This document shows, piece after piece, positions 26,004 through 61,315 of a DNA stretch of 64,000 bases. The translations under genes were made by a program, and so were the position numbers. Source of the DNA: a virus; the IMG/VR virus record IMGVR_UViG_3300041955_000884, positions 43,198-107,197 of that record; one strand, 5' to 3'. The notes beneath the pieces are model-generated. The model searched no databases, had not been told where the DNA came from, and saw only the letters and a program-made list of their open reading frames with translations. Position 1 is the stretch's first letter. Each line of letters opens with the position of its first letter.

Positions 26004-27118
26004 ACCCAGCCAGGATGCTCCGCAGTCTCTGCGAGGTCCTGAATAGTGACGTCTGGATCGGCGACGGGCCGATGGCGAAGCGCTGCGAGGCGCTCATCCG
26101 CGAGCAGATCGGCGTCCCGCATGCGTACCTGACGCCGTCGTGCACATCGGCGCTGGAGATGGCCTGCGTCCTGGCCGGCATCGGCCACGGCGACGAGGTC
26201 ATCATGCCGAGCTTCGGGTTCTCGTCGGCTGGAAACGCAGTGGTGCTGCGCGGCGGCGTGCCAGTATTCGTGGACGTGAGGCCGGACACGCTGAACATCG
26301 ACGAAACGCTGGTCGAGGGGGCGATCACGCGGAAGACGAAGGCGATTATCGTGGTGCACTACGCCGGGGTCATGTGCGAAATGCCGGCGATCTACGGCGT
26401 CGTTGGTCCGCAGGTGCTCATCATCGAGGATGCTGCGCAGGCCTATCTGTCGCGCTACCAAAACCTTGCCGCTGGCACATGGGGCGACATCAGCGCATTC
26501 AGCTTCCACCAGACGAAGAACATCCGCTGCGGCGAGGGCGGTGCGTTGACGCTTCCAGAGGGAGGGATTGGCGACGAATTCGCAACACGCGCCGAAGTCC
26601 TCCGCGAGAAGGGCACCGACCGCGCCGCCTTCCTCCGCGGCGAGGTCCAGCGCTACACCTGGACGGACGTCGGCTTCTCCGGGGTCGTCAGCGAGTTCCA
26701 GGCGGCGGTGCTGCTGGCGCAGCTCGAGCGGGCGAAGGAAATCACGGAGCGGCGGCTGGCGCTGTGGGACCGCTATCACCACGCCATGACCAACCTCGAC
26801 TACTGGGGCAAGGTGAGGCGCCCAACGGTCCCTCCGCACTGCCAGCACAACGGCCATATCTACCGCATTCTGCTGCCCACGCAAGCCGAGCGCGACCGCA
26901 TTCTCGCTGCACTGAATGCCGACGGGGTGAAGGCAAGTTTCCACTTTCAGGCATTGCACTCCGCTCCCGCAGGATTGCGCTACGGACGCGTTTCTGGTTC
27001 AATGGCCGTCACGGACTCGGTTTGCGGCCGGCTGCTGCGCATGCCGCTTAGCCATGCCACGACGGAGGAAGACGTCGACAGGGCAGTGGACAGGCTGGAG
27101 AAGGCGCTGCGGGGATGA
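25994..27118 (+). CDS. DegT/DnrJ/EryC1/StrS sugar aminotransferase (WecE/RffA-like)
   Basis: TPSCTSALEMA, VVHYAG, IEDAAQ, SFHQTKNIRCGEGG (PLP lysine). Confidence 0.92.
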   Translation: MPIDPARMLRSLCEVLNSDVWIGDGPMAKRCEALIREQIGVPHAYLTPSCTSALEMACVLAGIGHGDEVIMPSFGFSSAGNAVVLRGGVPVFVDVRPDTLNIDETLVEGAITRKTKAIIVVHYAGVMCEMPAIYGVVGPQVLIIEDAAQAYLSRYQNLAAGTWGDISAFSFHQTKNIRCGEGGALTLPEGGIGDEFATRAEVLREKGTDRAAFLRGEVQRYTWTDVGFSGVVSEFQAAVLLAQLERAKEITERRLALWDRYHHAMTNLDYWGKVRRPTVPPHCQHNGHIYRILLPTQAERDRILAALNADGVKASFHFQALHSAPAGLRYGRVSGSMAVTDSVCGRLLRMPLSHATTEEDVDRAVDRLEKALRG

Positions 27119-27642
27119 CACTCTCGGTCCAGCACCAGGCGCTCACTATGGCCGTGACGCAGGACGCGCTCCGGCAGGCGCAGGCCATTTTGGAGCGCGC
27201 TGGTCTGTCGGTCGAGGGCGCCTTCTTCGCCCTGGTCGTCGTGCCGAAGGACGGCGCCATCTTCGAGACGGTCTACTCCTGCATTTGGCCGGACGGACTC
27301 GGCGAGACAGTTGATGCAGCGATAGCGGAGATTATCGCGACGAAGCCAGTTGCGGCCGCAGATGCAAGGAACGCCGCGCAGTGGGCGAGCGCCAGGGCGG
27401 CCGGATGGAAACCTAGCGCCCCGGTACGGCCCGCAGCACCAGAACCAACCGGCACCGAACCGCGAAAAGGCACCGCCGAGGAATTCAGCTTCACGGTGCC
27501 GCCAGCGGCCGCGCCGCAGCCATCGGCCGCTTGGTACTGGCGCCTGCCGTGGTGGGCCGCATCCGCGCTGCTCGGGCTTTTCCTCTTGGCTGGAATTGGC
27601 GTTGCGGCGCTCATCGCTGCGGTCGTTCAGGAGATACCATGA
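27115..27642 (+). CDS. Hypothetical membrane-anchored protein
   Basis: C-terminal hydrophobic helix. Confidence 0.55.
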   Translation: MTLSVQHQALTMAVTQDALRQAQAILERAGLSVEGAFFALVVVPKDGAIFETVYSCIWPDGLGETVDAAIAEIIATKPVAAADARNAAQWASARAAGWKPSAPVRPAAPEPTGTEPRKGTAEEFSFTVPPAAAPQPSAAWYWRLPWWAASALLGLFLLAGIGVAALIAAVVQEIP

Positions 27643-32410: not shown

Positions 32411-33376
32411 TCACGGTGCTCCCGTAACACTAACCGCCTTCGTGCCGAGGAGGCGCCAAGCGCCCTGCCAGAAGGCGCAGAGCTCGAGCAGGTAGTCTCC
32501 CGCTGGCAGCGCGAACACAGCCTCGCCAGCCGTGCCGTACGCCGCGGCGTAGCTGATGCCGCTCACCGGCCTTCCGTTCCAGTAGCCCTTCCCGGCGGCG
32601 TCGAGCACGTTGACGCATGACCAGTCCCCGCCGGTGTCCGTCCAGACGAGCATCAACAGGCCGAGGATAGCGGAGCCGACGGTTATGGTTCCGGTCGGGT
32701 AGCCGAGCGCGGCCCCCACGATGGGATCCAGCGTGGCGAACATCGCCTGAGCCATCAGGTCGTAGCCGGATTGATTCGGATGGATGCCACTCCAGACGTT
32801 GAACATCTCAGAGTAGGACAGATCGGCGTGCCATGCGGCGCCCATCGCCTCCGTCTCGGCGTTGAAGTCAACGAGCGAAAGGCCAGCCGCCTGAGCGGCG
32901 CCGCGAACCATGGCCGCTTTGTCGTCGATGACGGCCGAGGCCCACGACGCATCGACCGCGTTCGGCGTCTCCAGCACGAGGCGCTTGCCAGCGGCCTGCG
33001 TGAGACGGACGATCTCGGCCAGCGGCGCCTGTACAGCCGCCGGCTCGTCGTTCATGCCGAGCGACAGCAGGACGACCGAGGCTGGAGTCGCGGCGACATA
33101 TGCCAGCCAGGAGTTCGCCACGCCGCCGGTGCCATCGAGCCAGTTCTGGAAAGTCGTTCCCGATACCCCGTTGTTGTTGACGACCACCAGCGGCCCGTAT
33201 TTCGCCTGGAGAAGCGCCCCAAGACCAGCCGGTGCTGGCGTCGCCACGACCGAGGAAACCGTGCCGTCGGCGCCGGGGGCCGGACCCGTGCTGGCGCCGT
33301 CGAACGTCAGCCCGAAAACCGTGCTGTCGCCATTGACGTCAACGACGAGGGGACTCGATGCGCTAGATTCGGTCAC
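32411..33376 (-). CDS. SGNH/GDSL hydrolase
   Basis: GDST, GVSG, GMND and GIHPNQSGY blocks. Confidence 0.8.
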   Translation of the reverse strand: MTESSASSPLVVDVNGDSTVFGLTFDGASTGPAPGADGTVSSVVATPAPAGLGALLQAKYGPLVVVNNNGVSGTTFQNWLDGTGGVANSWLAYVAATPASVVLLSLGMNDEPAAVQAPLAEIVRLTQAAGKRLVLETPNAVDASWASAVIDDKAAMVRGAAQAAGLSLVDFNAETEAMGAAWHADLSYSEMFNVWSGIHPNQSGYDLMAQAMFATLDPIVGAALGYPTGTITVGSAILGLLMLVWTDTGGDWSCVNVLDAAGKGYWNGRPVSGISYAAAYGTAGEAVFALPAGDYLLELCAFWQGAWRLLGTKAVSVTGAP

Positions 33377-33978
33377 GGAGCCAACTCCACGTTGTGATAC
33401 AGCCACGAAGCAAAATCCGCGCGTGTCTCGCTGTCAAGGAACTCCAGCCCGGCCCTGAGCAGCTCCGCCGTCGTCGGCTGCCGCGGCGGCTTCAGCGGCC
33501 GCAGGGGGGTGCCCTTCTTGCCGGAGTAGTTCGCTGGCCGGTCACGCTTCTCGACGTTGCACCTCACGCAGCAGCTCAGGATGTTGTCCCACACCGTCTG
33601 GCCGCCAGCCGCCCGCGGGATAACGTGGTCAAACGTCAGATCCTCGCTCTGGAACCGCTCGCCGCAGTACTGGCAGCGGTAGCGGTCCCGGAGGAGGATG
33701 GAGCGGCGACAGAACTTCGGCGCCGCATTGATTGGCGCGTACGACCGGAGCGCCACCACCTTCGGCACATGAATCGTGGTCGACGGCGAGCGGAACACCT
33801 CCGGCCACTCGTCCACGACGGTCACCGTCTCCTTGAAGACGGCGCGGATGGCTTCCTCGGGGCCGATAAGCGAGAGCGGCCAGGTACTTAACGGCCGAAA
33901 GTCGCTGTTCAGCACGAGACAGCGGCGCGCGTGGCGGTCGCGTCTATCAGGCTCAGCAGTGGCGACGGCGGTGCTCAT
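33373..33978 (-). CDS. HNH endonuclease (McrA-like) directly after the tRNA array
   Basis: LVLNSDFRPL, RDRYRCQYCG, LTFDHVIPRAAGG, CVRCNVEK. Confidence 0.9.
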   Translation of the reverse strand: MSTAVATAEPDRRDRHARRCLVLNSDFRPLSTWPLSLIGPEEAIRAVFKETVTVVDEWPEVFRSPSTTIHVPKVVALRSYAPINAAPKFCRRSILLRDRYRCQYCGERFQSEDLTFDHVIPRAAGGQTVWDNILSCCVRCNVEKRDRPANYSGKKGTPLRPLKPPRQPTTAELLRAGLEFLDSETRADFASWLYHNVELAP

Positions 33979-33989
33979 GCGCGGCCTCA

Positions 33990-34006
33990 GCGGCGAATAC
34001 GTCCAC
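33990..34006. repeat. Downstream arm of the inverted repeat bracketing the tRNA array
   Basis: GCGGCGAATACGTCCAC, complementary to 39644..39660 (12-bp perfect core). Confidence 0.75.
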
Positions 34007-34018
34007 TATCGCACGGAA

Positions 34019-34093
34019 TGGTGCTCTCGGGCAAGAATCGAACTGCCGTTTACCGCTTACGAGGCGGTAGTCCTGCCACTGAACGACGAGAGC
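34019..34093 (-). tRNA. tRNA-Thr(CGT)
   Basis: Acceptor GCTCTCG/CGAGAGC, loop CTCGTAA, encoded CCA. Confidence 0.92.
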
Positions 34094-34096
34094 GTA

Positions 34097-34125
34097 TTGA
34101 GCCGGTTAACTGGCTGCGTTATACT
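34097..34125 (+). promoter_or_regulatory. Sigma70-like promoter for the antisense HNH gene (leaderless)
   Basis: TTGAGC-N17-TATACT, 6 nt before the ATG at 34132. Confidence 0.6.
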
Positions 34126-34131
34126 GCGCCT

Positions 34132-34575
34132 ATGCCCCACCGCACCAAAGAAGAAAATGTCGCTGGCGTCCTAGCATGGCGGCGCCGCGCGAAGCTGCGA
34201 CTTATCGAGGCGTTCGGTGGCGGCTGCGGCATATGCGGATATAACCGCTGCGCCGCTAACATGGCGTTCCATCATCTTGATCCGTCTCAGAAGGGCGTCG
34301 GATTTGGAAGCGCTCAGTCTCGCTCCTGGGCGAAAGTGATACACGAGGTCAGAAAGTGCGTGATGCTGTGCCACAACTGCCACGGCGAATATCATGCCGG
34401 CCTTATCACTGACCTTTCCGCTTGCCCGCGCTTCGATGAAACGTGCGCCACCTACAGCACCCGACCAACGAAAGGGAAGACGCGGAGAACTGGAGGATTG
34501 GGAGGGAATCGAACCCGTCCTATGACGCAGATTAAGAGCCTGCCGGCCTCACCAGAGTGCCAACCAATCCGCTAG
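34132..34575 (+). CDS. HNH endonuclease inserted antisense in the tRNA array
   Basis: GGGCGICGY...FHHLDP...CVMLCHNCHGEYH. Confidence 0.85.
   Translation: MPHRTKEENVAGVLAWRRRAKLRLIEAFGGGCGICGYNRCAANMAFHHLDPSQKGVGFGSAQSRSWAKVIHEVRKCVMLCHNCHGEYHAGLITDLSACPRFDETCATYSTRPTKGKTRRTGGLGGNRTRPMTQIKSLPASPECQPIR
34491..34570 (-). tRNA. tRNA-Lys(CTT)
   Basis: GGATTGG/CCAATCC, loop CTCTTAA, U73, CCA. Confidence 0.85.
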
Positions 34576-34652
34576 TGGTGCATGTCCCGAGATTCGAACT
34601 CGGCCTGTGCGGGATTTGAAGCCGCCGCCTCCTGCCTCTGGGCTAGACATGC
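34576..34652 (-). tRNA. tRNA-Leu(CAA), short variable loop
   Basis: GCATGTC/GACATGC, stem GCGGC/CCCGC, loop TTCAAAT, A73, CCA. Confidence 0.7.
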
Positions 34653-34656
34653 GAAC

Positions 34657-34728
34657 TGGCCTCGCCGCCCGGATTCGAACCGGGAAGCCCAACCTTCGGA
34701 GGGTCGGGTGCAGTCCATTGCCGGCGAG
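34657..34728 (-). tRNA. tRNA-Arg(CCG), atypical compact fold
   Basis: CTCGCCG/CGGCGAG, 7-bp anticodon stem, loop CTCCGAA, CCA. Confidence 0.8.
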
Positions 34729-34732
34729 AAAC

Positions 34733-34803
34733 TGGTGCCCCGTGCAGGGATTCAACCTGCCGTCTTTGGCTTAGAACGCCTAGGCCGTCGCAGCGGACGG
34801 GGC
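34733..34803 (-). tRNA. tRNA-Arg(TCT), atypical compact fold
   Basis: GCCCCGT/ACGGGGC, loop GTTCTAA, CCA. Confidence 0.75.
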
Positions 34804-34808
34804 GAGCA

Positions 34809-34881
34809 TGGACCTCCCGGGACGAATCGGACGCCCTCATCGAGTTTCGTAGACTCAAGTCCGCAATCCAGCGGCGGGAGG
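34809..34881 (-). tRNA. tRNA-Arg(ACG), atypical compact fold
   Basis: CCTCCCG/CGGGAGG, 6-bp anticodon stem, loop CTACGAA, CCA. Confidence 0.8.
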
Positions 34882-34885
34882 AATT

Positions 34886-34960
34886 TGGGGGCGCGTGCGG
34901 GGGTCGAACCCGCCTCTCTCGGGTGAAGGCCGAGGCATCTCGCCGGAAATGTAACGCGCC
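34886..34960 (-). tRNA. tRNA-Glu(TTC), C33
   Basis: GGCGCGT/ACGCGCC, loop CCTTCAC, CCA. Confidence 0.85.
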
Positions 34961-34965
34961 GAAGT

Positions 34966-35040
34966 TGGTGGAGCTGACCGAAGTCGAATCGGTGTTACGA
35001 GACTGCCAGCCTCGCGTCCTTGCCACTGAACGACAGCCCC
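34966..35040 (-). tRNA. tRNA-Ala(GGC)
   Basis: G3:U70 present, loop CTGGCAG, CCA. Confidence 0.92.
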
Positions 35041-35115
35041 GAAGCTGTGGTCGGCGTTTGATGCCTATATCCGCCGACACGCCCCATACATGGCAAGGGC
35101 GGCGCCTCGTCAAAC

Positions 35116-35190
35116 TGGTGAAGGGCGTTGGAATCGAACCAACCGTCTCCGCCATGTCAAGGCGGTGCTCATCCGATAAGCTGGCCCTCC
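35116..35190 (-). tRNA. tRNA-Val(GAC)
   Basis: GGAGGGC/GCCCTTC, loop TTGACAT, CCA. Confidence 0.92.
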
Positions 35191-35262
35191 GTACCTCGCC
35201 GTCGAATCGAACGACGGTATCCGCGGTGTGAACGCGGCGCCCTGCCATTGAGCGAGCGAGGC
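35191..35262 (-). tRNA. tRNA-Val(CAC), CCA not fully encoded
   Basis: GCCTCGC/GCGAGGT, loop TTCACAC; ends A-C and abuts the next tRNA. Confidence 0.88.
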
Positions 35263-35266
35263 AAAG

Positions 35267-35341
35267 TGGTCGGGGATGCAGGAATTGAACCTGCGTCGCC
35301 GCCTTCCAAGGGCGGAACCTGGGCCACTAGGCTAATCCCCG
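35267..35341 (-). tRNA. tRNA-Pro(TGG)
   Basis: C1:G72, A73, loop CTTGGAA, CCA. Confidence 0.9.
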
Positions 35342-35345
35342 TAGA

Positions 35346-35416
35346 TGGCGCCCCCGGCTGAAATCGAATCAGCATTCCTTGGCTTAGGAAGCCAGGGCCG
35401 CTCCATCGGCGGGGGC
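35346..35416 (-). tRNA. tRNA-Arg(CCT), atypical compact fold
   Basis: GCCCCCG/CGGGGGC, loop TTCCTAA, CCA. Confidence 0.8.
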
Positions 35417-35420
35417 AATC

Positions 35421-35498
35421 TGGTCAGCGTGCGGTGATTCGAACACCGGCTCTCGTGCGCCCGAGGCACGCGCTTTGGCCTGGCTAAGCTACACGCTG
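35421..35498 (-). tRNA. tRNA-Pro(CGG)
   Basis: CAGCGTG/CACGCTG, loop CTCGGGC, CCA. Confidence 0.92.
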
Positions 35499-35505
35499 TC
35501 GAAGC

Positions 35506-35581
35506 TGGCGCCCCAGACGGGTTCCGACCCCGCCAACATCGGCTTGACAAGCCGAGACCCCCGCCAGGGAGAATCTGGGGC
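35506..35581 (-). tRNA. tRNA-Asp(GTC)
   Basis: GCCCCAG/CTGGGGC, G73, loop TTGTCAA, T-loop GTCGGAA. Confidence 0.8.
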
Positions 35582-35585
35582 AATC

Positions 35586-35667
35586 TGGAGGACGGCGGAG
35601 GTGACGATCCCCTTGCGGCCGGATTAAAGGTCCGGTCCAGCGCCTCGCTGGTATACGCTCGCCGTCC
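35586..35667 (-). tRNA. tRNA-Lys(TTT), divergent (C33, enlarged D region)
   Basis: GGACGGC/GCCGTCC, stem CCGGA/TCCGG, loop CCTTTAA, T-loop ATCGTCA, CCA. Confidence 0.7.
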
Positions 35668-35672
35668 GAAAG

Positions 35673-35747
35673 TGGTTGCCGCACGCGGTACTGCCCCGCG
35701 AGCCTCTCGCTTATCGGGCGAGCGCACGACTTTCATGCTCTACGGCA
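35673..35747 (-). tRNA. tRNA-Ile(GAT), C33
   Basis: TGCCGTA/TGCGGCA, loop CCGATAA, T-loop GGCAGTA, CCA. Confidence 0.82.
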
Positions 35748-35748
35748 A

Positions 35749-35833
35749 TGGTGAGTTGGTGTGGTGCTGCCCCACGCGCCCGAAGGCGAAGGATTTACAG
35801 TCCTCCTGCCGGAGCTGCCGGCTTTACCAACCC
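35749..35833 (-). tRNA. tRNA-Tyr(GTA)
   Basis: Loop CTGTAAA, variable arm GCC-TTCG-GGC, T-loop GGCAGCA, CCA. Confidence 0.85.
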
Positions 35834-35839
35834 GTGAAC

Positions 35840-35910
35840 TGGAGCCGCGTCTCGGTGTTGCGCCGAGCCTCCGTCCATACCAAGGACGGGTGCAGACTGC
35901 TGCGCGCGGC
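35840..35910 (-). tRNA. tRNA-Thr(GGT), compact fold
   Basis: 6-bp stem CCGTCC/GGACGG, loop TTGGTAT, D arm GCAG-CAGT-CTGC, CCA. Confidence 0.78.
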
Positions 35911-35913
35911 AGA

Positions 35914-36001
35914 TGGTGGAAGGCCCCGAGCACGATTCGGACACCTTTCGGTGCGCACGGTTTAGCAGACCGGCCCCGCAACCTTACGGGCTGTGCCTTC
36001 C
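35914..36001 (-). tRNA. tRNA-Ser(GCT)
   Basis: GGAAGGC/GCCTTCC, loop CTGCTAA, long variable arm, CCA. Confidence 0.85.
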
Positions 36002-36007
36002 AGAAAG

Positions 36008-36097
36008 TGGCGGACGGCGGCTAGTGCTGCCCTGCAAACCCGTTGGGGTCTCATCGGTTTTCGAGGCCGAGCCGCAGACTGCTGCGGGTCACCGTCC
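36008..36097 (-). tRNA. tRNA-Ser(CGA), 8/4 fold
   Basis: 8-bp acceptor GGACGGTG/CGCCGTCC, loop CTCGAAA, long variable arm, G73, CCA. Confidence 0.82.
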
Positions 36098-36209
36098 ATG
36101 TGCGCTCCAGCGCACTGTATCGCGGCTAATGTGCTCTTGAGAGCCGATTTTGCGGGCGCCGCATTCGCTGCGGTCGTTCAAGACTGGAGGCGGAGGCCAG
36201 CCCCCATAG

Positions 36210-36297
36210 TGGCGGAGAGCGGGCGCGCACGATGCCCATGCCTTGCGGCACCAGCCGGGTTCAAACCGGCGGTCGGAACCTTCCGACTTCACTCTCC
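36210..36297 (-). tRNA. tRNA-Ser(TGA), 8/4 fold
   Basis: 8-bp acceptor GGAGAGTG/CGCTCTCC, loop TTTGAAC, long variable arm, G73, CCA. Confidence 0.85.
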
Positions 36298-36301
36298 GTA
36301 A

Positions 36302-36389
36302 TGGCGGGCGGCGGGCGCAGTCGAAGCCCTGGCCTTTCGGCCTCATCGCGCTTCCAACGCGAGCCGGCGACCCCGCCGGTTCACCGCCC
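36302..36389 (-). tRNA. tRNA-Ser(GGA), 8/4 fold
   Basis: 8-bp acceptor GGGCGGTG/CGCCGCCC, loop TTGGAAG, long variable arm, G73, CCA. Confidence 0.85.
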
Positions 36390-36393
36390 AAAC

Positions 36394-36478
36394 TGGTAGC
36401 CCACGAAGGAGTTGCACCCTCACGCCGCGATGGCACGAGTTCCTAAGACTCGCGTGTCTGCTGTTCCACCAGTGGGCC
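36394..36478 (-). tRNA. tRNA-Leu(TAG)
   Basis: Loop CTTAGGA, long variable arm, A73, CCA. Confidence 0.9.
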
Positions 36479-36483
36479 TAACT

Positions 36484-36567
36484 TGGTACGCCCGGGGAGA
36501 GTTGCACTCCCACGTCATGCGACACAACGCCCTCAACGTTGCGCGTCTGCTGTTCCGCCACGGGCGC
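36484..36567 (-). tRNA. tRNA-Leu(GAG)
   Basis: Loop TTGAGGG, long variable arm, A73, CCA. Confidence 0.9.
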
Positions 36568-36568
36568 T

Positions 36569-37078
36569 CTATTTCGGTGCTGGCCAAATGTCGGCCAGGG
36601 TCGGACGACGCTCGCCGAGGACGAGCGACAGCCTGGATTTCGAGTGCGCTGGCGCTAGGCGGTCGAGCCGTTGCGCAGGCTGGGGCACATTGGCCAACGT
36701 CGCCTCCGAGATCGGCTCGGCATATTGGCCAATCTTGTGCAGGCCCCAGGACGCCGCGACGTGGAATTCGGGCTTGCGGGAGCCAGACGGACCCGGCTTC
36801 GCCACTGCTCTGACGCACGCCACCGCGCCCCAGCAGTGGCCGCAGGCGGCGCGGAGGTTGTTGCAGTGCCCGCAGACGAGGTGGTGCATTCTCGTGCCCG
36901 TGGGATACTCGTAGCGCCTCGTGCGCGGCAGGATGTGGTCCCGCGTGGCGCTCCGCTTGGCGTGGCCCTCGGGCAGCATCGGGTCGCCGCACTGGGGGCA
37001 GCAGACGGTCTCGCCCATCGCCTTCGCGAGGTCGAACAGGAGCAGCTTCCTCTTCGTGAAGCCCTGCGGCGCGCTCAT
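36569..37078 (-). CDS. HNH-like endonuclease within the tRNA array
   Basis: CPQCG...ATRDHILPR...VCGHCNNLR; leaderless promoter TTGCCT-N16-TAGGCT upstream. Confidence 0.75.
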   Translation of the reverse strand: MSAPQGFTKRKLLLFDLAKAMGETVCCPQCGDPMLPEGHAKRSATRDHILPRTRRYEYPTGTRMHHLVCGHCNNLRAACGHCWGAVACVRAVAKPGPSGSRKPEFHVAASWGLHKIGQYAEPISEATLANVPQPAQRLDRLAPAHSKSRLSLVLGERRPTLADIWPAPK

Positions 37079-37116
37079 GGCGGAAGCCTACCACGCTCGG
37101 CGCCGGAGGCAAGATG

Positions 37117-37200
37117 TGGTGCCGGCGGCAGGCATCGAACCTGCACGCTGCGCGCGGCCCGGTTTAAGCGGGCTGGGTCTACCGATTCCCCCACGCCGGC
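37117..37200 (-). tRNA. tRNA-Leu(TAA)
   Basis: GCCGGCG/CGCCGGC, loop CTTAAAC, long variable arm, CCA. Confidence 0.9.
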
Positions 37201-37203
37201 GAT

Positions 37204-37278
37204 TGGTGGCGCTAGGGGGATTTGAACCCGCCCTTTCCCGGTTGAGAGCCGAGCGGCCTGCCAATAGCCGATAGCGCC
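37204..37278 (-). tRNA. tRNA-Glu(CTC)
   Basis: GGCGCTA/TAGCGCC, loop CTCTCAA, CCA. Confidence 0.9.
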
Positions 37279-37282
37279 GAAA

Positions 37283-37357
37283 TGGAAGCGGGTGCCCGAC
37301 TCGAACGAGCGTGAAGGAGGTCAAAGCTCCCCGTCCTGGCCGCTGAACGAACCCGCC
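37283..37357 (-). tRNA. tRNA-Gln(TTG)
   Basis: G1:U72 weak first pair, loop CTTTGAC, CCA. Confidence 0.88.
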
Positions 37358-37362
37358 GCGAT

Positions 37363-37467
37363 TGGTAGGCGATGACGGTGCCGACCCGTCTCGAACGCCG
37401 CCAGTGCGTAAGGGACCGTCGCCCCCTGGGCCGTCGCCCGCGTTCTGCCCAGCCGGGGCAATCGCCT
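37363..37467 (-). ncRNA. tRNA-like RNA with the anticodon loop replaced by a 41-nt branched domain
   Basis: Acceptor AGGCGAT/ATCGCCT-A-CCA, D arm and T arm intact, stem GAACGC/GCGTTC closing three hairpins. Confidence 0.75.
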
Positions 37468-37505
37468 GCCGAGTTTCTAGCACGTCACATCCGATACCGC
37501 AATAG

Positions 37506-37579
37506 TGGAAGCCGACCAAGGTGTCGAGCCTTGCCCGACGAGCTTCAGAGGCTCGCGTGCCCAGCCGGGGCGATCGGCC
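37506..37579 (-). tRNA. tRNA-Gln(CTG), compact fold
   Basis: GGCCGAT/GTCGGCT, 1-nt linker, loop CTCTGAA, CCA. Confidence 0.8.
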
Positions 37580-37582
37580 GAA

Positions 37583-37661
37583 TGGTGCTCCTGGCCGCGA
37601 TTCGAACGGGCGACCCCCGGGATACAAAGCCGGTGCTCTGGCCAGACTGAGCTACAGGAGC
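37583..37661 (-). tRNA. tRNA-Thr(TGT)
   Basis: GCTCCTG/CAGGAGC, canonical D arm, loop TTTGTAT, CCA. Confidence 0.9.
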
Positions 37662-37662
37662 T

Positions 37663-37739
37663 TGGGGTGACATGCCGGTACCGCCCCGGCCCAAACTGGG
37701 CTCACAACCCAGCGCAATCGCTTGCCTGCCCATGTCACC
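37663..37739 (-). tRNA. tRNA-His(GTG) with G-1:C73
   Basis: G-GTGACAT/ATGTCAC-C-CCA, loop TTGTGAG. Confidence 0.88.
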
Positions 37740-37751
37740 ATACGCAATCCA

Positions 37752-38130
37752 TCCCGTCGCATCTATGCTCGCCTCGGTGTTACCCGTGGCTAGCCGTATC
37801 GCACGGCGAACGGGAGCCGGGGCTACCGTCTGTTTCAACGGTGTCGCCGGAGAGGTTTCGAGCCGGCATCGCTATGCTACGGCGGCATCGAAGACGGCTT
37901 GCCGCCGGCGGAGGGGTTAATCCCGCGCATCACCACCCTGGGTCGGGCTCCGCAATCCCCTGATGACTTAGCCGCTTCGCCGCCGGTTCCATGCCCAGCG
38001 CCGCTCGAAAGCTCCCTGCGGGCTAGCCTCGGCGCGCATCCGAAGCCAAGCTGGGCCAGCCTTAGAACCACCGCAGCGCTGGCCCGTCGCCCGCGTGGAA
38101 GGCTTCGCGTCTGTCCGCGATGCCGCAGGA
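37752..38130 (-). ncRNA. Candidate ~380-nt structured RNA between tRNA-Cys and tRNA-His
   Basis: Ends pair (TCCTG-CG-GCATC / GATGC-GA-CGGGA); many hairpins; no credible ORF. Confidence 0.55.
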
Positions 38131-38133
38131 AGG

Positions 38134-38209
38134 TGGAGAAGCGCCACAGAGTCGAACTGCGTGATGCGGGGTTGCAATCCGCCACCCAAGGCCGTCGGGT
38201 TCGCGCTTC
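38134..38209 (-). tRNA. tRNA-Cys(GCA)
   Basis: U73, loop TTGCAAC, CCA. Confidence 0.88.
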
Positions 38210-38214
38210 AATCT

Positions 38215-38288
38215 TGGCAGGGGCGTGAGGAATTGGACCCCATCTAGCTGGGTTGGAGCCAGCCGTGCTGCCGTAACACTTCGCCCCC
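38215..38288 (-). tRNA. tRNA-Trp(CCA)
   Basis: G73, loop CTCCAAC, CCA. Confidence 0.88.
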
Positions 38289-38292
38289 AAGT

Positions 38293-38367
38293 TGGCTCCA
38301 GAGGCAGGACTTGAACCTGCAACCTCACGGTTAACGGCCGTTTGCTCAGCCATTGAGCTACTCTGGA
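38293..38367 (-). tRNA. tRNA-Asn(GTT), C33
   Basis: TCCAGAG/CTCTGGA, G73, loop CCGTTAA, CCA. Confidence 0.92.
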
Positions 38368-38486
38368 AAACTCGTCTGGCGCTCGGCCCTCTCGGGCCAG
38401 ACTTTCCGGGCTACCCACCAGCGCGTTGCCATGGCTCGCTGGCCTCTATCCGTTATGGACTCGGGGTGACCGAGTCACGCCATGCT

Positions 38487-38562
38487 TGGAGCGGGATGCC
38501 GGGGACGATCCGAGCTTCACTGGTTTGGAAGACCAGCACAGTTACCGAACTGCAAATCCCGC
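38487..38562 (-). tRNA. tRNA-Gly(TCC)
   Basis: GCGGGAT/ATCCCGC, U73, loop CTTCCAA, CCA. Confidence 0.87.
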
Positions 38563-39137
38563 GAAATGGTGCCAGCGCCTGGTTTCGCGCCAGGGTCTTC
38601 GCTTTTTCGGAGCGACGCTTCCACTAGGTTAGCTTCGCTGGCCATTGGCAGGGAAGTCCACGCCTTGCCGAGCTTGATGCGGCTTATCATGTCCTCCGTC
38701 ACGCGAAAACTTGTTGCTATCGAACGGCCAGTTCGGCCAGATGCCAGGAAGCGGCGAATCTCATGCACATCACGCTCCGACAGCTTAGCGTTTCCATTTG
38801 ACGCCCCCACGGAGGGCGGCAGGTTGCCCTTCGGGCGACGCCCCTTCCTGGCACTGTCCCGCATATTTTCGGCGTTCGTTCCGAGCCACAGGTGACGCGG
38901 ATTGCAGCAGGGCGGGTTGTCGCAAGAATGGCAGACGCAAAGGCCGCAGGTCGGTCCCTTCGCTATCTCGTAAGCGACGGCATGTGCCCGCCGAGAGCGG
39001 AGCGTTGGCCTGCTTTGCTTGAACCGACCGTACCCGTCATCGTCAATCTGGCGAGTCCACGGCCAGCACTCGTCAGGCCCGCGGATGTCAACCTTTGACC
39101 AAAAGCGCGCAATCGCCTTATCGTCGTGAATAGCCAT
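38517..39137 (-). CDS. HNH homing endonuclease with C-terminal HTH; the frame runs through tRNA-Phe
   Basis: RFWSKVD...ECWPW...CHSCDNPPCCNPRHLWLGTNAENMRD; SD GAGGAG. Confidence 0.88.
   Translation of the reverse strand: MAIHDDKAIARFWSKVDIRGPDECWPWTRQIDDDGYGRFKQSRPTLRSRRAHAVAYEIAKGPTCGLCVCHSCDNPPCCNPRHLWLGTNAENMRDSARKGRRPKGNLPPSVGASNGNAKLSERDVHEIRRFLASGRTGRSIATSFRVTEDMISRIKLGKAWTSLPMASEANLVEASLRKSEDPGAKPGAGTISRDLQFGNCAGLPNQ
38567..38642 (-). tRNA. tRNA-Phe(GAA), C33
   Basis: GCCAGCG/CGCTGGC, loop CCGAAAA, T-loop CGCGAAA, CCA. Confidence 0.87.
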
Positions 39138-39235
39138 ATCGGCCGTCTCCTCGGCTGGCGTGGTCAGGACCGCCGGGGCGTTCACAGCGCTCCGGCGGCC
39201 CGAGATTTCTAGTCGAAATGTCCAGCCGAAGCAAT

Positions 39236-39307
39236 TGGTTGCAGGGGAGCGAGTCGCACGCTCTGTGGAAAATTTATGAGACTTTCTGGCCTCTGAGGCT
39301 CCCTGCA
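39236..39307 (-). tRNA. tRNA-Met(CAT), compact fold
   Basis: TGCAGGG/CCCTGCA, 1-nt linker, 6-bp anticodon stem, loop CTCATAA, CCA. Confidence 0.75.
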
Positions 39308-39312
39308 ATAAC

Positions 39313-39386
39313 TGGTGGGCGCGCGACGAATCGGACGCCGGTCAAGCCTTTATGAGAGGCTCGCTCTTCCATTGAGCTACACGCCC
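39313..39386 (-). tRNA. tRNA with CAT anticodon (probably Ile2/lysidine; Met not excluded)
   Basis: GGGCGTG/CGCGCCC, loop CTCATAA, no initiator features, CCA. Confidence 0.82.
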
Positions 39387-39399
39387 GTCGCGTGGAATT

Positions 39400-39474
39400 T
39401 GGAGCTGACGCCCGGTACCGCCCCGGGTGATACTGATTGGCAACCAGTCCCGCAACCTTTCGCGGACCGCCAGC
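39400..39474 (-). tRNA. tRNA-Gly(GCC)
   Basis: U73, loop TTGCCAA, T-loop GGCGGTA, CCA. Confidence 0.83.
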
Positions 39475-39485
39475 TAAGACATGAA

Positions 39486-39531
39486 CGAATCTCGCCCGAC
39501 CTGGCGACGACACGGCCAGGTCGGGCATTCG
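39486..39531. other. Strong hairpin spacer between tRNA-Ala and tRNA-Gly
   Basis: Perfect 12-bp stem GCCCGACCTGGC/GCCAGGTCGGGC plus CGAAT/ATTCG. Confidence 0.6.
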
Positions 39532-39536
39532 TGAAA

Positions 39537-39611
39537 TGGTGGAGGCGCGGATAGTCGAAATCCGAGACAGCAATCTTGCAAGGATAGCCCGCTGGTCCGC
39601 AGCTCGCCCCC
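39537..39611 (-). tRNA. tRNA-Ala(TGC), compact fold; first tRNA of the array
   Basis: G3:U70, 1-nt linker, loop CTTGCAA, CCA. Confidence 0.83.
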
Positions 39612-39643
39612 GTCGGGCCGCTTGGCAGGCGGCCCGTAGTCAT

Positions 39644-39660
39644 GTGGACGTATTCACAGC
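39644..39660. repeat. Upstream arm of the inverted repeat bracketing the tRNA array
   Basis: GTGGACGTATTCACAGC, complementary to 33990..34006. Confidence 0.75.
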
Positions 39661-39663
39661 CTC

Positions 39664-39701
39664 AAAGAACAAAAGCCCCCGAGAGTTTCCTCCGGGGGCT
39701 T
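39664..39701 (-). terminator. Intrinsic terminator (attenuator) in front of the tRNA array
   Basis: AAGCCCCCG-GAG-GAAA-CTC-T-CGGGGGCTT followed by TTGTTCTTT. Confidence 0.88.
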
Positions 39702-39757
39702 GGTCGTGTACGCTTCCACAGTCAAAGCCAGAAGCGGTTACAAGGCCAAGCCCTCGG
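39692..39757 (-). promoter_or_regulatory. Antiterminator hairpin, mutually exclusive with the terminator
   Basis: CCGAGGGCTTGG (39757..39746) pairs 11/12 with CCAAGCCCCCGG (39703..39692); inner TGTA/TACA and CGCTTC/GAAGCG. Confidence 0.75.
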
Positions 39758-39860
39758 CGTTCGGCTGATGCGTCGCGGACTTCCCGCCCAAGCTACGCCG
39801 CACGGTGGGTTTTATGCCGCGTCGTTCGGCGTAGCCAGGAAAGGAGGTCCAGAGTGACAT
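39738..39860 (-). CDS. Putative 40-aa codon-sampling leader peptide MSLWTSFPGYAERRGIKPTVRRSLGGKSATHQPNAEGLAL
   Basis: ATG 7 nt after the -10 box; 31 distinct codons in 40; stop lies inside the antiterminator 5' arm. Confidence 0.75.
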   Translation of the reverse strand: MSLWTSFPGYAERRGIKPTVRRSLGGKSATHQPNAEGLAL

Positions 39861-39867
39861 CGCTGCC

Positions 39868-39897
39868 CTTATGCGGGCGGCGGCGGGGGCGTGTCAA
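39868..39897 (-). promoter_or_regulatory. Sigma70-like promoter of the tRNA operon
   Basis: TTGACA-N18-CATAAG. Confidence 0.65.
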
Positions 39898-40342
39898 GCC
39901 CTGAATCGCACCGGAGCGGCGCGTTCGCGATTTCGAGGAGGACGGTGGCGTGGCATGCTTGGTCCAGGCGGCACCAGCAGGCGAGGTCCTTGCCGCGAAG
40001 TTCGCGGCGCACATCATCAATGGTTGTCGCGTCCATGCTGGGAATTTTTCCTTTTGGCCATGGGAGCGCAACAGGAATCCACGCGCCTTCCTTGGCGAGC
40101 ATCGAGCGGAACGCAGCAACCGCCAGTTGGGCGTCCATTGGAAAGCGCTGCCCATTCTGCATGCGATCAGAATGAACGACGAACGGATTGCCCCACTTCG
40201 ATCCGCGTCCGACGTAGACGGCTCCCTCTGGCATCCGCCAGCCCTTCGTCCGGCGCCGCTGGATTCGCCGTGGAGCGAAGGCGCAGACGCGGGCCTCACG
40301 GCAGCGCGCTGGCCCTGGGCAGTAGTCGCATGCCTCGGTCAT
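39869..40342 (-). CDS. DUF4326-like protein
   Basis: RIQRRRTKGWRMPEGAVYVGRGSKWGNPF...LRGKDLACWC...CHA. Confidence 0.8.
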   Translation of the reverse strand: MTEACDYCPGPARCREARVCAFAPRRIQRRRTKGWRMPEGAVYVGRGSKWGNPFVVHSDRMQNGQRFPMDAQLAVAAFRSMLAKEGAWIPVALPWPKGKIPSMDATTIDDVRRELRGKDLACWCRLDQACHATVLLEIANAPLRCDSGLDTPPPPPA

Positions 40343-40941
40343 CAATCCGCCGCCTGGGCGAACAGCGGCGCGTCGCGACGCCGGAACACCGTGACGACCC
40401 GGAAGCGGTGGTTCGTGCTCTTCACCATGCCGATGACGGCTTCCATCTCGAAGGCGTCCTTGCGATACATCGGTAGCACTTGGTCGAGCCAGACGATGTG
40501 CGTTCCTGGCGCCAGCCGCCCCAAGGCGCTCATCACCGCATTTCGCTTCACCATCGTCGTCCGGTAGCGCTCGGCGTCCTCGACGGAGTAGGGCGGGTCG
40601 GCCAGAACAAGGTCGTAGCGCTCCAGTGGCACGCGCTCCAGCGTCTGGGCGTCGTCCACGAACGTCGGCGCCAGCTCCGCGTTCACGTCCACGGTATCGC
40701 CGGGCATCGCGGCAAGGTCCACGCGGCCAGAGAACAGGTGCAGGAGGCGCTCCTTGTCGGGGAACAGAGCCTTGATTCGTCGAAGATATCCGGCCGGATA
40801 GCCGCCGTAATAGGCCGACTTCACGCGGTAGTCGTTCCCCATAATCCAGGTGCCGACGACGCGGCCGTCCTCGCCGATAAACAGGCTCCGCGGAAAGCCC
40901 GTGGCGCGGACGTAGTTGTCGATGCGCTCCTGCCAGTTCAT
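40342..40941 (-). CDS. Adenine methyltransferase-like protein
   Basis: YYGGYP, LHLFSG, VLADPPY. Confidence 0.7.
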   Translation of the reverse strand: MNWQERIDNYVRATGFPRSLFIGEDGRVVGTWIMGNDYRVKSAYYGGYPAGYLRRIKALFPDKERLLHLFSGRVDLAAMPGDTVDVNAELAPTFVDDAQTLERVPLERYDLVLADPPYSVEDAERYRTTMVKRNAVMSALGRLAPGTHIVWLDQVLPMYRKDAFEMEAVIGMVKSTNHRFRVVTVFRRRDAPLFAQAAD

Positions 40942-40987
40942 GGCAGCACCGCCCTGCCAATGGTCTCCGAACGCGCCATGGGCGGCG

Positions 40988-41212
40988 TCAGCGCGGCCAG
41001 AGGCGGATTTGGTGTGGCGGGGCGTAGCATTCGCCGCCGACATCCAGCCTTACGCGCCAGCGCCTCCAGCCGAGGCCATATTCCTCGAAGGCGATGATCT
41101 CGCCGGCTTCGCCTGTCCACGGATGGGCGCCGACGATACAGACACGGTCGCCGGCCTTCATCCGGTTCTGCGGCGGGATGGCGACGAAATCGTTGGGCTT
41201 CTTCACGCTCAT
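40988..41212 (-). CDS. Small KOW/SH3-like protein
   Basis: GDRVCIVGAHPWTGEAGEI; leaderless promoter TTGCGC-N17-CAGGAT. Confidence 0.5.
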   Translation of the reverse strand: MSVKKPNDFVAIPPQNRMKAGDRVCIVGAHPWTGEAGEIIAFEEYGLGWRRWRVRLDVGGECYAPPHQIRLWPR

Positions 41213-42281: not shown

Positions 42282-43988
42282 CTAGCTCGGCGGCGCTGGC
42301 AATCCAGAAGATGGCGCGAAAGGCGTCGCTGGCATTTCGACATTTGCCGCCGTCGGCCGATCGCAGGTTACCTCCATGACGCCAAGATGAGTCGTGGCAT
42401 ACGTAACGTCGAGGTCGCACCATGCAGTGAACCCCGCCTCCCTGGCCTTGACAATCATGAACAGGTCTTCGGAAAAGTAGCGCTCAGGGCTGCCGGAGTC
42501 GACCGCGACCTCGTAATTATCCATCAACCAAGCACCGAACGGCGTGGCGTCAATCGAGGCGAGCACGTCATCTGGTGGGACCTTCGTGAAATACTCCCGC
42601 ATCTGGTTTTTGAACGCGTCGAGGTTGTCTTTCCCAGCCCAGCGGTAGCATTCCGCGTACCATGGCCATCCGAGCCGACGATATATATCGGCCCTGACGA
42701 GCAGTACGCCTCCCGGCAAAAGCTCGGCTTCAACGAGGCCACCCTTCGCCAACTCCTCCGGCGGCGGCGGAGGTCCCTTGAGCCGGCCGAGCGTGGAGTA
42801 CGGCTTCGTTCTCCGATTGTACGTGGCGCCGACAATATCTTTGTTGTGCCGCAGAAACTTGACAATAGTGTCTGGCGGCACGACCATGTCGCTGTCCAAC
42901 CAGAAAACATAGTCGCAGTTCTGCTCAAGGGCTATCTGCACGATACTGTTCCTACCGTGCGTGACAGACGAAGTCTGAACGTTGAGTAGCGTGCAATCCA
43001 GGCCTGCAAGTGATGTATAGCTGGCCAGCGCCGCGATGCAGTTGGCGGTGGTCGCCTCGTACGTTCTACCACTTGGGGTTGCAATGGCAACCCGCAACTT
43101 CCTCGGCTGCTGTTTGGCGAGGTCGGCCATCATCTTCACGGCGTGGGCCTTGACCTCAGCATACGCGGCGTAGGGCGGCTCGGCGCCAGCGGGGGCGGCC
43201 CAGCGCTCCAGGAAGGCGGGGTGCTTGAGGTGCGCGATGCGGGCTGCGGCGATTTGCTGGCGGCGCGGCAGATCGGCCAGGGCGCGCTTGCCTTCATCGC
43301 CCTCCTTCCCCCAGGCAGCCTCGATGAGTTGGATGCCCTCCTTCAGCCGGACGGGATTGAGGGCGTGGAAGAAGTCGCACCAGAAGGGAAGCTCGTAGCG
43401 ACCGCCGGTGGTGTCGCCCTGGCCATCGGGGGCGCCGAGCTTCACGTCAATCTCGAAGCGGACGCCGAGGAGAACGCCGAGCTGGTCCCAATGGGTGTCG
43501 ATGAACCAATAGGGGTAGCAGGGCGGCATCACGAAGCCGACGGCGCGCTCCATCTGGCGGGTGATGATGGGGAAGGCGGCGTGGTCGGGATGGAAGTCGT
43601 CCTTGGGGTAAGCGACGCCGATGCCGTTCGGGAGCTTCGCGACGGCCTCGCGGAACTTCGCCGGCCAGCCATCGGTCTCCATGACGCGGTCGTTGGCGCA
43701 GAACCAGAGGATGTCGCCCTTGGCCTCGAGGGCGAGCTGGTTGATCTTCTGCCCGAGCGTGAGCGGGCGTGGCCAGCGGAACACGTGGACATTGTGGCGG
43801 AAGGGCGGCTCGTCGGCCGAATGCGTCTCATCGTCCTCGTCTATGGCGATGCACGCTTCCCACCGCTGGTCATCGCCTGCGGTGTCAACGAGTGAGTAGA
43901 TAAGGCGCCGCAGCCCGTCCGGTCGCCCTCTCTCGGGGATGAGGACGGAAATCATCGGCTTCTCGCGGCGCAGTCTGGCCTCGCCCAT
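42282..43988 (-). CDS. Two-domain glycosyltransferase (GT2-like)
   Basis: ISVLIPERGRP...NDR...WFIDTH; second domain IATP...RNSIV...FWLDSDM...SEDLF. Confidence 0.8.
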   Translation of the reverse strand: MGEARLRREKPMISVLIPERGRPDGLRRLIYSLVDTAGDDQRWEACIAIDEDDETHSADEPPFRHNVHVFRWPRPLTLGQKINQLALEAKGDILWFCANDRVMETDGWPAKFREAVAKLPNGIGVAYPKDDFHPDHAAFPIITRQMERAVGFVMPPCYPYWFIDTHWDQLGVLLGVRFEIDVKLGAPDGQGDTTGGRYELPFWCDFFHALNPVRLKEGIQLIEAAWGKEGDEGKRALADLPRRQQIAAARIAHLKHPAFLERWAAPAGAEPPYAAYAEVKAHAVKMMADLAKQQPRKLRVAIATPSGRTYEATTANCIAALASYTSLAGLDCTLLNVQTSSVTHGRNSIVQIALEQNCDYVFWLDSDMVVPPDTIVKFLRHNKDIVGATYNRRTKPYSTLGRLKGPPPPPEELAKGGLVEAELLPGGVLLVRADIYRRLGWPWYAECYRWAGKDNLDAFKNQMREYFTKVPPDDVLASIDATPFGAWLMDNYEVAVDSGSPERYFSEDLFMIVKAREAGFTAWCDLDVTYATTHLGVMEVTCDRPTAANVEMPATPFAPSSGLPAPPS

Positions 43989-61285: not shown

Positions 61286-61315
61286 TTGACAACCGCTCCG
61301 CTCGCGGCTTAATAT
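61286..61315 (+). promoter_or_regulatory. Sigma70-like promoter of the rightward gene cluster
   Basis: TTGACA-N18-TAATAT in the divergent gap next to terS. Confidence 0.55.

Follow-up and report, generated by a model that had tools for sequence, protein, structure and literature searches.

An intrinsic terminator and a mutually exclusive upstream hairpin precede the tRNA array of an uncultured phage

Genomic setting of the tRNA array

We analyzed a window of 64,000 nucleotides that extends from base 43198 to base 107197 of an uncultured virus record of 107,197 bp (IMG/VR record IMGVR_UViG_3300041955_000884) that is approximately 94% complete and contains approximately 65% G+C. Coordinates refer to this window unless the whole record is named. 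Genes for tail, portal-like, terminase, and exonuclease proteins confirmed that the record belongs to a phage. The minus strand carries all genes from approximately position 43988 down to 30806, in the following order: a glycosyltransferase-like gene, further protein genes including one of 233 aa, a DUF4326 gene, the leader region, the tRNA array, an HNH endonuclease gene, and an exonuclease gene. The host is probably a proteobacterium, because relatives of the large terminase sit in long contigs of metagenome-assembled Alphaproteobacteria genomes.

The DUF4326 gene (39869..40342, minus strand; Pfam PF14216, E 2e-24) is the last protein gene ahead of the array and ends with TAA at 39871..39869. 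Its product is recorded in the protein collection, and the gene was called on nine contigs. The DNA of this gene is 77-81% identical to that of genes in Mycobacterium, Gordonia, and Arthrobacter phages over 15-17% of a 1,101-nt query. These matches, while the terminase points to Alphaproteobacteria, suggest that the gene may move between distant phages.

The tRNA array, delineated using ARAGORN and Infernal, occupies 34019..39611 on the minus strand, with homing-endonuclease genes interspersed in it and following it; endonuclease-like frames interrupt the array, as they do the tRNA region of T4. The first gene of the array, according to ARAGORN, is tRNA-Ala(UGC) at 39611..39537. A previous reading of the sequence without database searches (hereafter, the sequence-only reading) had called the array complete, and our annotation did not confirm this. 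ARAGORN detected 25 tRNAs for 14 amino acids, and Infernal added three untyped ones (38570-38642, 35918-36001, and 36012-36097). Relaxed ARAGORN settings added Asp, such that 14-15 amino acids are covered by standard tools; tRNAs for Ser, Tyr, Cys, and Phe, or an Ile tRNA typed as such, were not detected in the array even with the relaxed settings. Many of the array tRNAs score low, and the two programs disagree on the array content.

An inverted repeat (17 nt, 12 perfect) has one arm at 39644..39660 on the minus strand and its partner at 34006..33990, just past the last tRNA. The repeat brackets the whole 5.6-kb array, with one arm after the U-tract of the terminator described below and the other after the last tRNA, and could serve in processing as a long-range stem or mark the ends of a mobile cassette. 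None of seven further repeat pairs of comparable quality in the 7.1 kb is placed in this way. The HNH homing-endonuclease gene (33376-33978, minus strand) begins 12 nt past the downstream repeat arm.

Hairpins ahead of the array

The leader of 216 nt folds with z -3.6, and its hairpins all lie on the minus strand. Hairpin A (39776..39851) is long and imperfect, with approximately 25 bp and a perfect core of 10 bp; its dG is -41.3 kcal/mol (z -3.77), and none of 200 shuffles equaled it. It is followed by a hairpin at 39692..39757 that we refer to as the antiterminator (dG -32.3 kcal/mol; z -4.64, a value inflated by the post hoc choice of the folding window). Its outer helix joins 39757..39746 with 39703..39692 and encloses an inner hairpin B (approximately 39742..39707). 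The intrinsic terminator (39664..39701; dG -23.5 kcal/mol, z -3.9) consists of a hairpin at 39701..39673, with a G+C-rich stem of 12 bp, one bulge, and a GAAA loop, and a U-rich tract that contains 9 U among the 11 nt from the stem end. The remaining 52-nt spacer before tRNA-Ala (39663..39612) has a dG of -20.6 kcal/mol (z -2.5) and holds a predicted hairpin D (39614..39636), an 8-bp G+C stem directly ahead of the first tRNA. No promoter-like site was found in this spacer.

The sequence-only reading had reported pairing at 11 of 12 positions between the end of a short open reading frame and the 5' arm of the terminator, and this pairing was reproduced: CCGAGGGCTTGG (39757..39746) is complementary to CCAAGCCCCCGG (39703..39692). 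The overall layout was likewise as claimed, with a terminator directly ahead of the array, a mutually exclusive upstream hairpin that shares its 5' arm, and the stop codon of the frame in the 5' strand of that hairpin, 63 nt before the terminator stem end. Because the antiterminator and the terminator both use 39703..39692, only one of them can form at a time.

We then compared the best duplex between the terminator arm and the upstream 154-162 nt with null sequences. The complement was above chance (P 0.012-0.045): shuffled sequences gave P 0.036 and genome windows P 0.03, and P was 0.012 when the arm was defined slightly differently. The 107-kb record contains three clean intrinsic terminators in all. 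The other two, which a terminator scan placed on the plus strand at 2812-2860 and 27385-27425 of the whole record, have no such complement (P 0.90 and 0.33, respectively). One of these follows a solitary tRNA gene (27028-27099 of the whole record) at a distance of approximately 320 nt. The terminator and the competing hairpin at the array are real and non-random.

In the growing transcript, the antiterminator was the minimum-energy fold until the 3' arm of the terminator had been made, after which the terminator won. The predicted equilibrium shares were 73-82% for the terminator and 18% for the antiterminator, and the minimum-energy fold flipped between the two hairpins when the transcript ends were shifted slightly. 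The pairing that would disrupt the antiterminator is a weak local hairpin of about -6 kcal/mol, and the probability of the terminator in the absence of a ribosome is 0.73. A search of 8 kb with Rfam families, including T-box, riboswitches, and His_leader, returned no match in the leader at E <= 1. In a 301-nt search, even the best hits were at chance level and were rejected; His_leader, for instance, scored 17.2 bits (E 1.3), whereas the Rfam gathering threshold of this family is 49.

The 40-codon frame

The frame proposed as a leader peptide (39738..39860, minus strand) appears in the open reading frame list and its translation as described, with ATG at 39860, TAA at 39740..39738, and 40 sense codons, of which 31 are distinct, for 18 kinds of amino acid. 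The DUF4326 stop codon precedes the ATG by 8 nt, and the terminator begins 36 nt past the stop codon of the frame. Hairpin A spans codons 4-29, and the stop codon is held in hairpin B.

Evidence that the frame encodes a protein was sought in several ways. The 40-aa peptide matched no Pfam family, was absent from a set of 15 billion proteins in an exact look-up, and gave a best E of at least 0.6 when compared with phages by tblastn. Gene callers never predicted the frame, though they called the DUF4326 gene on nine contigs. Its codon-usage score fell between those of coding and non-coding sequence: it exceeded the score of 96% of off-frame windows and ranked at the 8th percentile among gene windows. 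An equal score was reached by 27% of short frames across the genome and, within the array region, by 11% of open windows; at 40 codons, such a score has no power to separate coding from non-coding sequence. GC3 was highest in this frame among the three frames.

The sequence-only reading held that the frame had been built to sample codons. Codon counts did not bear this out, as 31 distinct codons in 40 is ordinary for an unbiased sequence (P 0.12-0.17). Open mononucleotide shuffles of the frame contained 28.6 distinct codons on average (sd 2.0), with a P of 0.17 for at least 31; in open 40-codon windows of the tRNA-array region, the corresponding P was 0.12. The 18 kinds of amino acid (P 0.03-0.05) were likewise not taken as exceeding chance. 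When the frame was compared with the genes of the phage itself, its diversity was indeed rare (0.4% of 40-codon windows). Such genes, however, are codon-biased; therefore, this rarity shows only that the frame is without codon bias. The AT-rich codons, which had been read as a further sign of sampling, have a structural explanation instead: ATA and AAA form the apical loop of hairpin A, and in the predicted fold TCA belongs to the unpaired 5' tail and TTT sits at a bulge. Regulatory codons were not enriched in the stall window; at positions 22-31, all ten codons differ from one another, and they specify eight amino acids. Moreover, the array spans most amino acids; therefore, matching of the codons to its tRNAs cannot discriminate.

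Signals for transcription and translation

The promoter postulated immediately ahead of the frame is partly as claimed. The TTGACA (39897..39892), the 18-nt spacer, and the CATAAG (39873..39868) exist on the minus strand, but the idea that they make a good promoter was not supported. Both hexamers lie inside the last 10 codons of the DUF4326 gene, in its unconserved C-terminal tail; the -35-like element is within Leu-Asp-Thr codons, and the -10-like element contains the TAA of the gene. A sigma-70-type promoter would have two hexamers separated by 16-18 nt, with A as the second and T as the sixth base of the -10 hexamer. TTGACA matches at 6/6 positions and the spacer is within this range, but CATAAG matches at 4/6 and carries G at position 6. 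A promoter scan that required T at the end of the -10 hexamer found no minus-strand site in 33500-41000. TTGACA occurs 33 times in the genome, mostly within genes. The best of these is part of a near-consensus promoter-like site on the plus strand (61286-61314; TTGACA, 17 nt, TAATAT), and this textbook site indicates that consensus-type sites do occur in the genome.

A possible Shine-Dalgarno site, UAAGGG (39866..39871, minus strand), was identified by its pairing with the 16S 3' end. Because it precedes the ATG by 5 nt, the frame need not be leaderless, as had been supposed. The pairing (-5.0 kcal/mol) is at the weak end among genes of this phage and is matched by 24% of the ATGs in the genome. 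UAAGGG could act as a ribosome-binding site on transcripts started upstream. Alternatively, a ribosome finishing DUF4326, 8 nt upstream, could re-initiate on the frame.

Predicted effect of the ribosome position

We moved a 30-nt ribosome footprint mask codon by codon along this one sequence and calculated equilibrium folding. The mask switched the predicted fold and yielded a trp-like profile. In the absence of a ribosome, the probabilities were 0.73 for the terminator and 0.18 for the antiterminator. With the ribosome at codons 11-15 and 22-31, the terminator fell to 0.01-0.34 and the antiterminator rose to 0.59-0.83. With the ribosome at codons 33-41, the terminator was at 0.83 and the antiterminator at 0-0.13; at codons 1-5 and 16-18, the values were 0.61-0.80 and 0.04-0.20, respectively. 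Stalling at almost any codon had been expected to cause read-through, and the scan did not agree with this expectation: the antiterminator was favored at 16 of the first 30 footprint positions, and the terminator was still favored at 13. AAA (codon 17) falls within a footprint window in which the fold does not switch.

We also asked how often the arrangement as a whole arises in shuffled sequences. In dinucleotide shuffles of the spacer, we required jointly that a frame have at least 20 codons, that its stop codon fall 5-70 nt ahead of the terminator, and that a complement no weaker than the observed one lie under the terminating ribosome. This combination occurred in 0.07% of shuffles when only ATG starts were allowed and in 0.7% when GTG and TTG were included. 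The true surprise of this geometry is smaller than these values, because the criteria were set after the case had been seen.

RNA data and relatives

A single contig of 448 nt and depth 10.4 from a metatranscriptome spans 39847..39400, bridging the terminator and running into tRNA-Ala and beyond. It begins 13 nt inside the frame; the piece from the DUF4326 gene has a depth of 4.2. The contig fits read-through and also allows a start near 39860; it comes from one study, contigs cannot show RNA ends, and the libraries may contain DNA. No RNA-library contig was placed over 39848-40024, where gaps in contig cover prove nothing.

The phage was found at an identity of at least 99% in wetland, peat, soil, and lake runs of different studies, of which four runs were compared; near-identical strains from one soil and one lake run showed no sequence differences within 39660-39860. 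Relatives with this array were not found in GenBank phages, IMG/VR, or JGI metagenomes. The best relatives of the DUF4326 gene were 62% identical in IMG/VR and 64% identical in JGI metagenomes, and none of its relatives adjoin tRNAs. Those of the neighboring 233-aa gene reached 81% identity and were without arrays, those of the large terminase (49-74% identity) were in records with 0-2 tRNAs each, and the 169-aa frame inside the array had no match. Exact 30- and 33-nt patterns from tRNA-Ala and the terminator also had no match, and blastn against GenBank phages returned matches to the DUF4326 gene and tRNA-Asn only. In the alphaproteobacterial Ochrobactrum phage ORM_20, an array of five tRNAs starts 18 nt past a gene, which leaves no room for a leader; this array has no bearing on the present locus.

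Comparison with known systems

As predicted here, the locus has the architecture of leader-peptide attenuators in four structural respects and lacks their regulatory codons, and translation of the frame is putative. As in the trpL, hisL, thrL, and ilvL attenuators, a short frame is followed by a terminator and by an antiterminator that shares the terminator 5' arm, the stop codon is placed such that a terminating ribosome masks the antiterminator, and a stall window lies just upstream. Unlike these attenuators, the frame has no run of codons for one or a few amino acids, contains a very stable hairpin, and is combined with a weak anti-antiterminator. The downstream genes are tRNAs, not biosynthetic enzymes, and regulation is only predicted here.

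The leader frames of vmlR and msrD sense translation inhibition ahead of resistance genes (PMC9226507; bioRxiv 10.1101/2021.11.29.470318). If the present locus is an attenuator, it would resemble these in sensing general ribosome progress and in its output, i.e., terminator read-through into a gene that aids translation; however, the vmlR and msrD frames are much shorter and stall ribosomes at drug-specific peptide motifs. The trn operon of Anabaena, to our knowledge the only inducible tRNA array studied so far, is a silent array of 26 tRNA genes induced by translational stress (PMC8421152, PMC10272220). Both are accessory tRNA arrays with expression that rises when translation is impaired, which is only proposed for the phage; the Anabaena operon, in contrast, is controlled by a protein repressor, TrcR, at its promoter, and the words attenuator, leader, and terminator are absent from both papers. 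The literature search found no published case of an attenuator ahead of tRNA genes.

The locus resembles ordinary intrinsic terminators weakened by a competing upstream sequence throughout, in its G+C stem, U-tract, complement to the 5' arm, and occupancy of approximately 75-80%. There is no difference of substance, and an ordinary leaky terminator is the default reading.

Interpretation of the leader

We favor, with modest confidence, a leaky terminator in a structured leader, with the array fed by read-through and the frame incidental. The 200 bases that separate the first tRNA from the DUF4326 gene form a structured RNA leader, in which one of three strong hairpins is a genuine intrinsic terminator. 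The 5' arm of the terminator can pair instead with a segment 45 nt upstream, and this competing hairpin, which in the predictions precedes the terminator on the nascent RNA, probably renders termination leaky. The array would most likely be supplied by read-through of upstream transcription, because the 52-nt spacer before tRNA-Ala holds no promoter-like site. Most likely, the frame is incidental. Codon variety of this degree and AT-rich codons are expected of an unbiased, hairpin-forming sequence. The structures, their energies, and their mutual exclusion are what we found; from these we infer the leakiness, the supply by read-through, and a frame that is not a sensor. Several results agree with this reading, including equilibrium shares of 73-82% and 18% with folds that flip easily, codon diversity that fits a composition-matched null, ATA and AAA in a loop and TCA in an unpaired tail, a hairpin A that fills codons 4-29 unlike in known leader peptides, a poor -10 element within a gene, a frame that has neither a gene call nor a peptide homologue, and an RNA-library contig that crosses the terminator (39847 to 39400). 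Other results speak against it: the joint geometry of frame and complement is rare in shuffles (0.07%, or 0.7%), the other two terminators of the genome lack a complement (P 0.90 and 0.33), the footprint pattern is trp-like (codons 11-15 and 22-31 against 33-41), and the frame has the top GC3 and a coding score above 96% of off-frame windows.

The geometry statistics, the folding order of the nascent RNA, and the footprint scan would also suit a ribosome-mediated attenuator that senses translation speed in general, for which ordinary codon variety suffices and no special design is needed. The frame would be translated leaderless or by re-initiation after the DUF4326 stop, a ribosome at the stop codon would cover the antiterminator 5' strand and let the terminator form, and a lag in codons 11-31 would allow read-through into the tRNAs. 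The stop codon within that strand, 63 nt before the terminator stem end, is well placed for this, and UAAGGG with the adjacent stop codon permits coupled initiation; the start of the RNA contig 13 nt inside the frame, a single contig, is less than a weak hint. We nevertheless consider such an attenuator unlikely, as it relies on a single sequence and on test criteria set after the case was seen, a very stable hairpin occupies most of the frame, only weak pairing (about -6 kcal/mol) would secure termination when no ribosome is present, 13 of 30 first footprint positions still favor the terminator, and no published case for tRNA genes was found, the inducible Anabaena array using TrcR. The claim that the frame is translated, that its ribosome decides between stopping and run-on, and that it senses decoding in general, with the array on when translation slows, seems doubtful to us. 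The sequence-only reading went further and proposed a frame selected for maximal codon sampling, an OR gate through which the loss of almost any host tRNA to defense nucleases or toxins would induce a full set of replacement tRNAs. It draws on the same points as the general attenuator, on 31 distinct codons being slightly above the unbiased mean of 28.6, and on phage tRNAs being known to counter tRNA-cleaving defenses (PMC11464382, PMC11555353). The diversity, however, lacks significance (P 0.12-0.17), hairpin loops account for the AT-rich codons, the footprint on AAA (codon 17) leaves the fold unswitched, and standard tools detect array tRNAs for only 14-15 amino acids; we regard the proposal as highly improbable. 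Hardly less improbable is a real 40-aa protein gene that ends the upstream operon ahead of an operon terminator, with arm pairing that is coincidental or tunes termination. An ATG 8 nt past the previous stop with UAAGGG, a terminator 36 nt after the frame, and the best GC3 would fit such a gene, but it has no homologue or gene call, scores at the 8th percentile of gene windows, a level that 27% of the short frames of the genome also reach, and is mostly one hairpin. Somewhat less remote, and still quite unlikely, is an element for RNA processing, stability, or factor-dependent antitermination, in which hairpin A and the array-bracketing repeat would be double-strand RNase sites that free the tRNA precursor, or the hairpins would act like the put RNA of phage HK022 or a nut site. 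Three hairpins with z -3.8 or lower, an inverted repeat exactly at both array ends, and a terminator that sits within a long block of same-strand genes point to such an element, whereas no Rfam match exceeded chance, no factor was identified, and the position of the frame is left unexplained.

Phage tRNA arrays are now regarded as counter-measures to tRNA-cleaving defense systems. If the frame does sense decoding, the array would also be switched on when defense nucleases cut host tRNAs, and an attenuator of this translation-sensing kind ahead of tRNA genes would represent a regulatory logic that is new. The locus offers a well-defined terminator/antiterminator pair; we found no support for its extraordinary-looking feature, deliberate codon sampling. 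It further illustrates that a match between codons and tRNAs has no discriminating value when an array spans most amino acids.

Occurrence of the phage

Approximately 20 studies, with runs from wetland, peat, soil, lake, and freshwater, contained the same phage, an unusually wide occurrence for an environmental phage. One possibility is that its host is a common laboratory or reagent contaminant.
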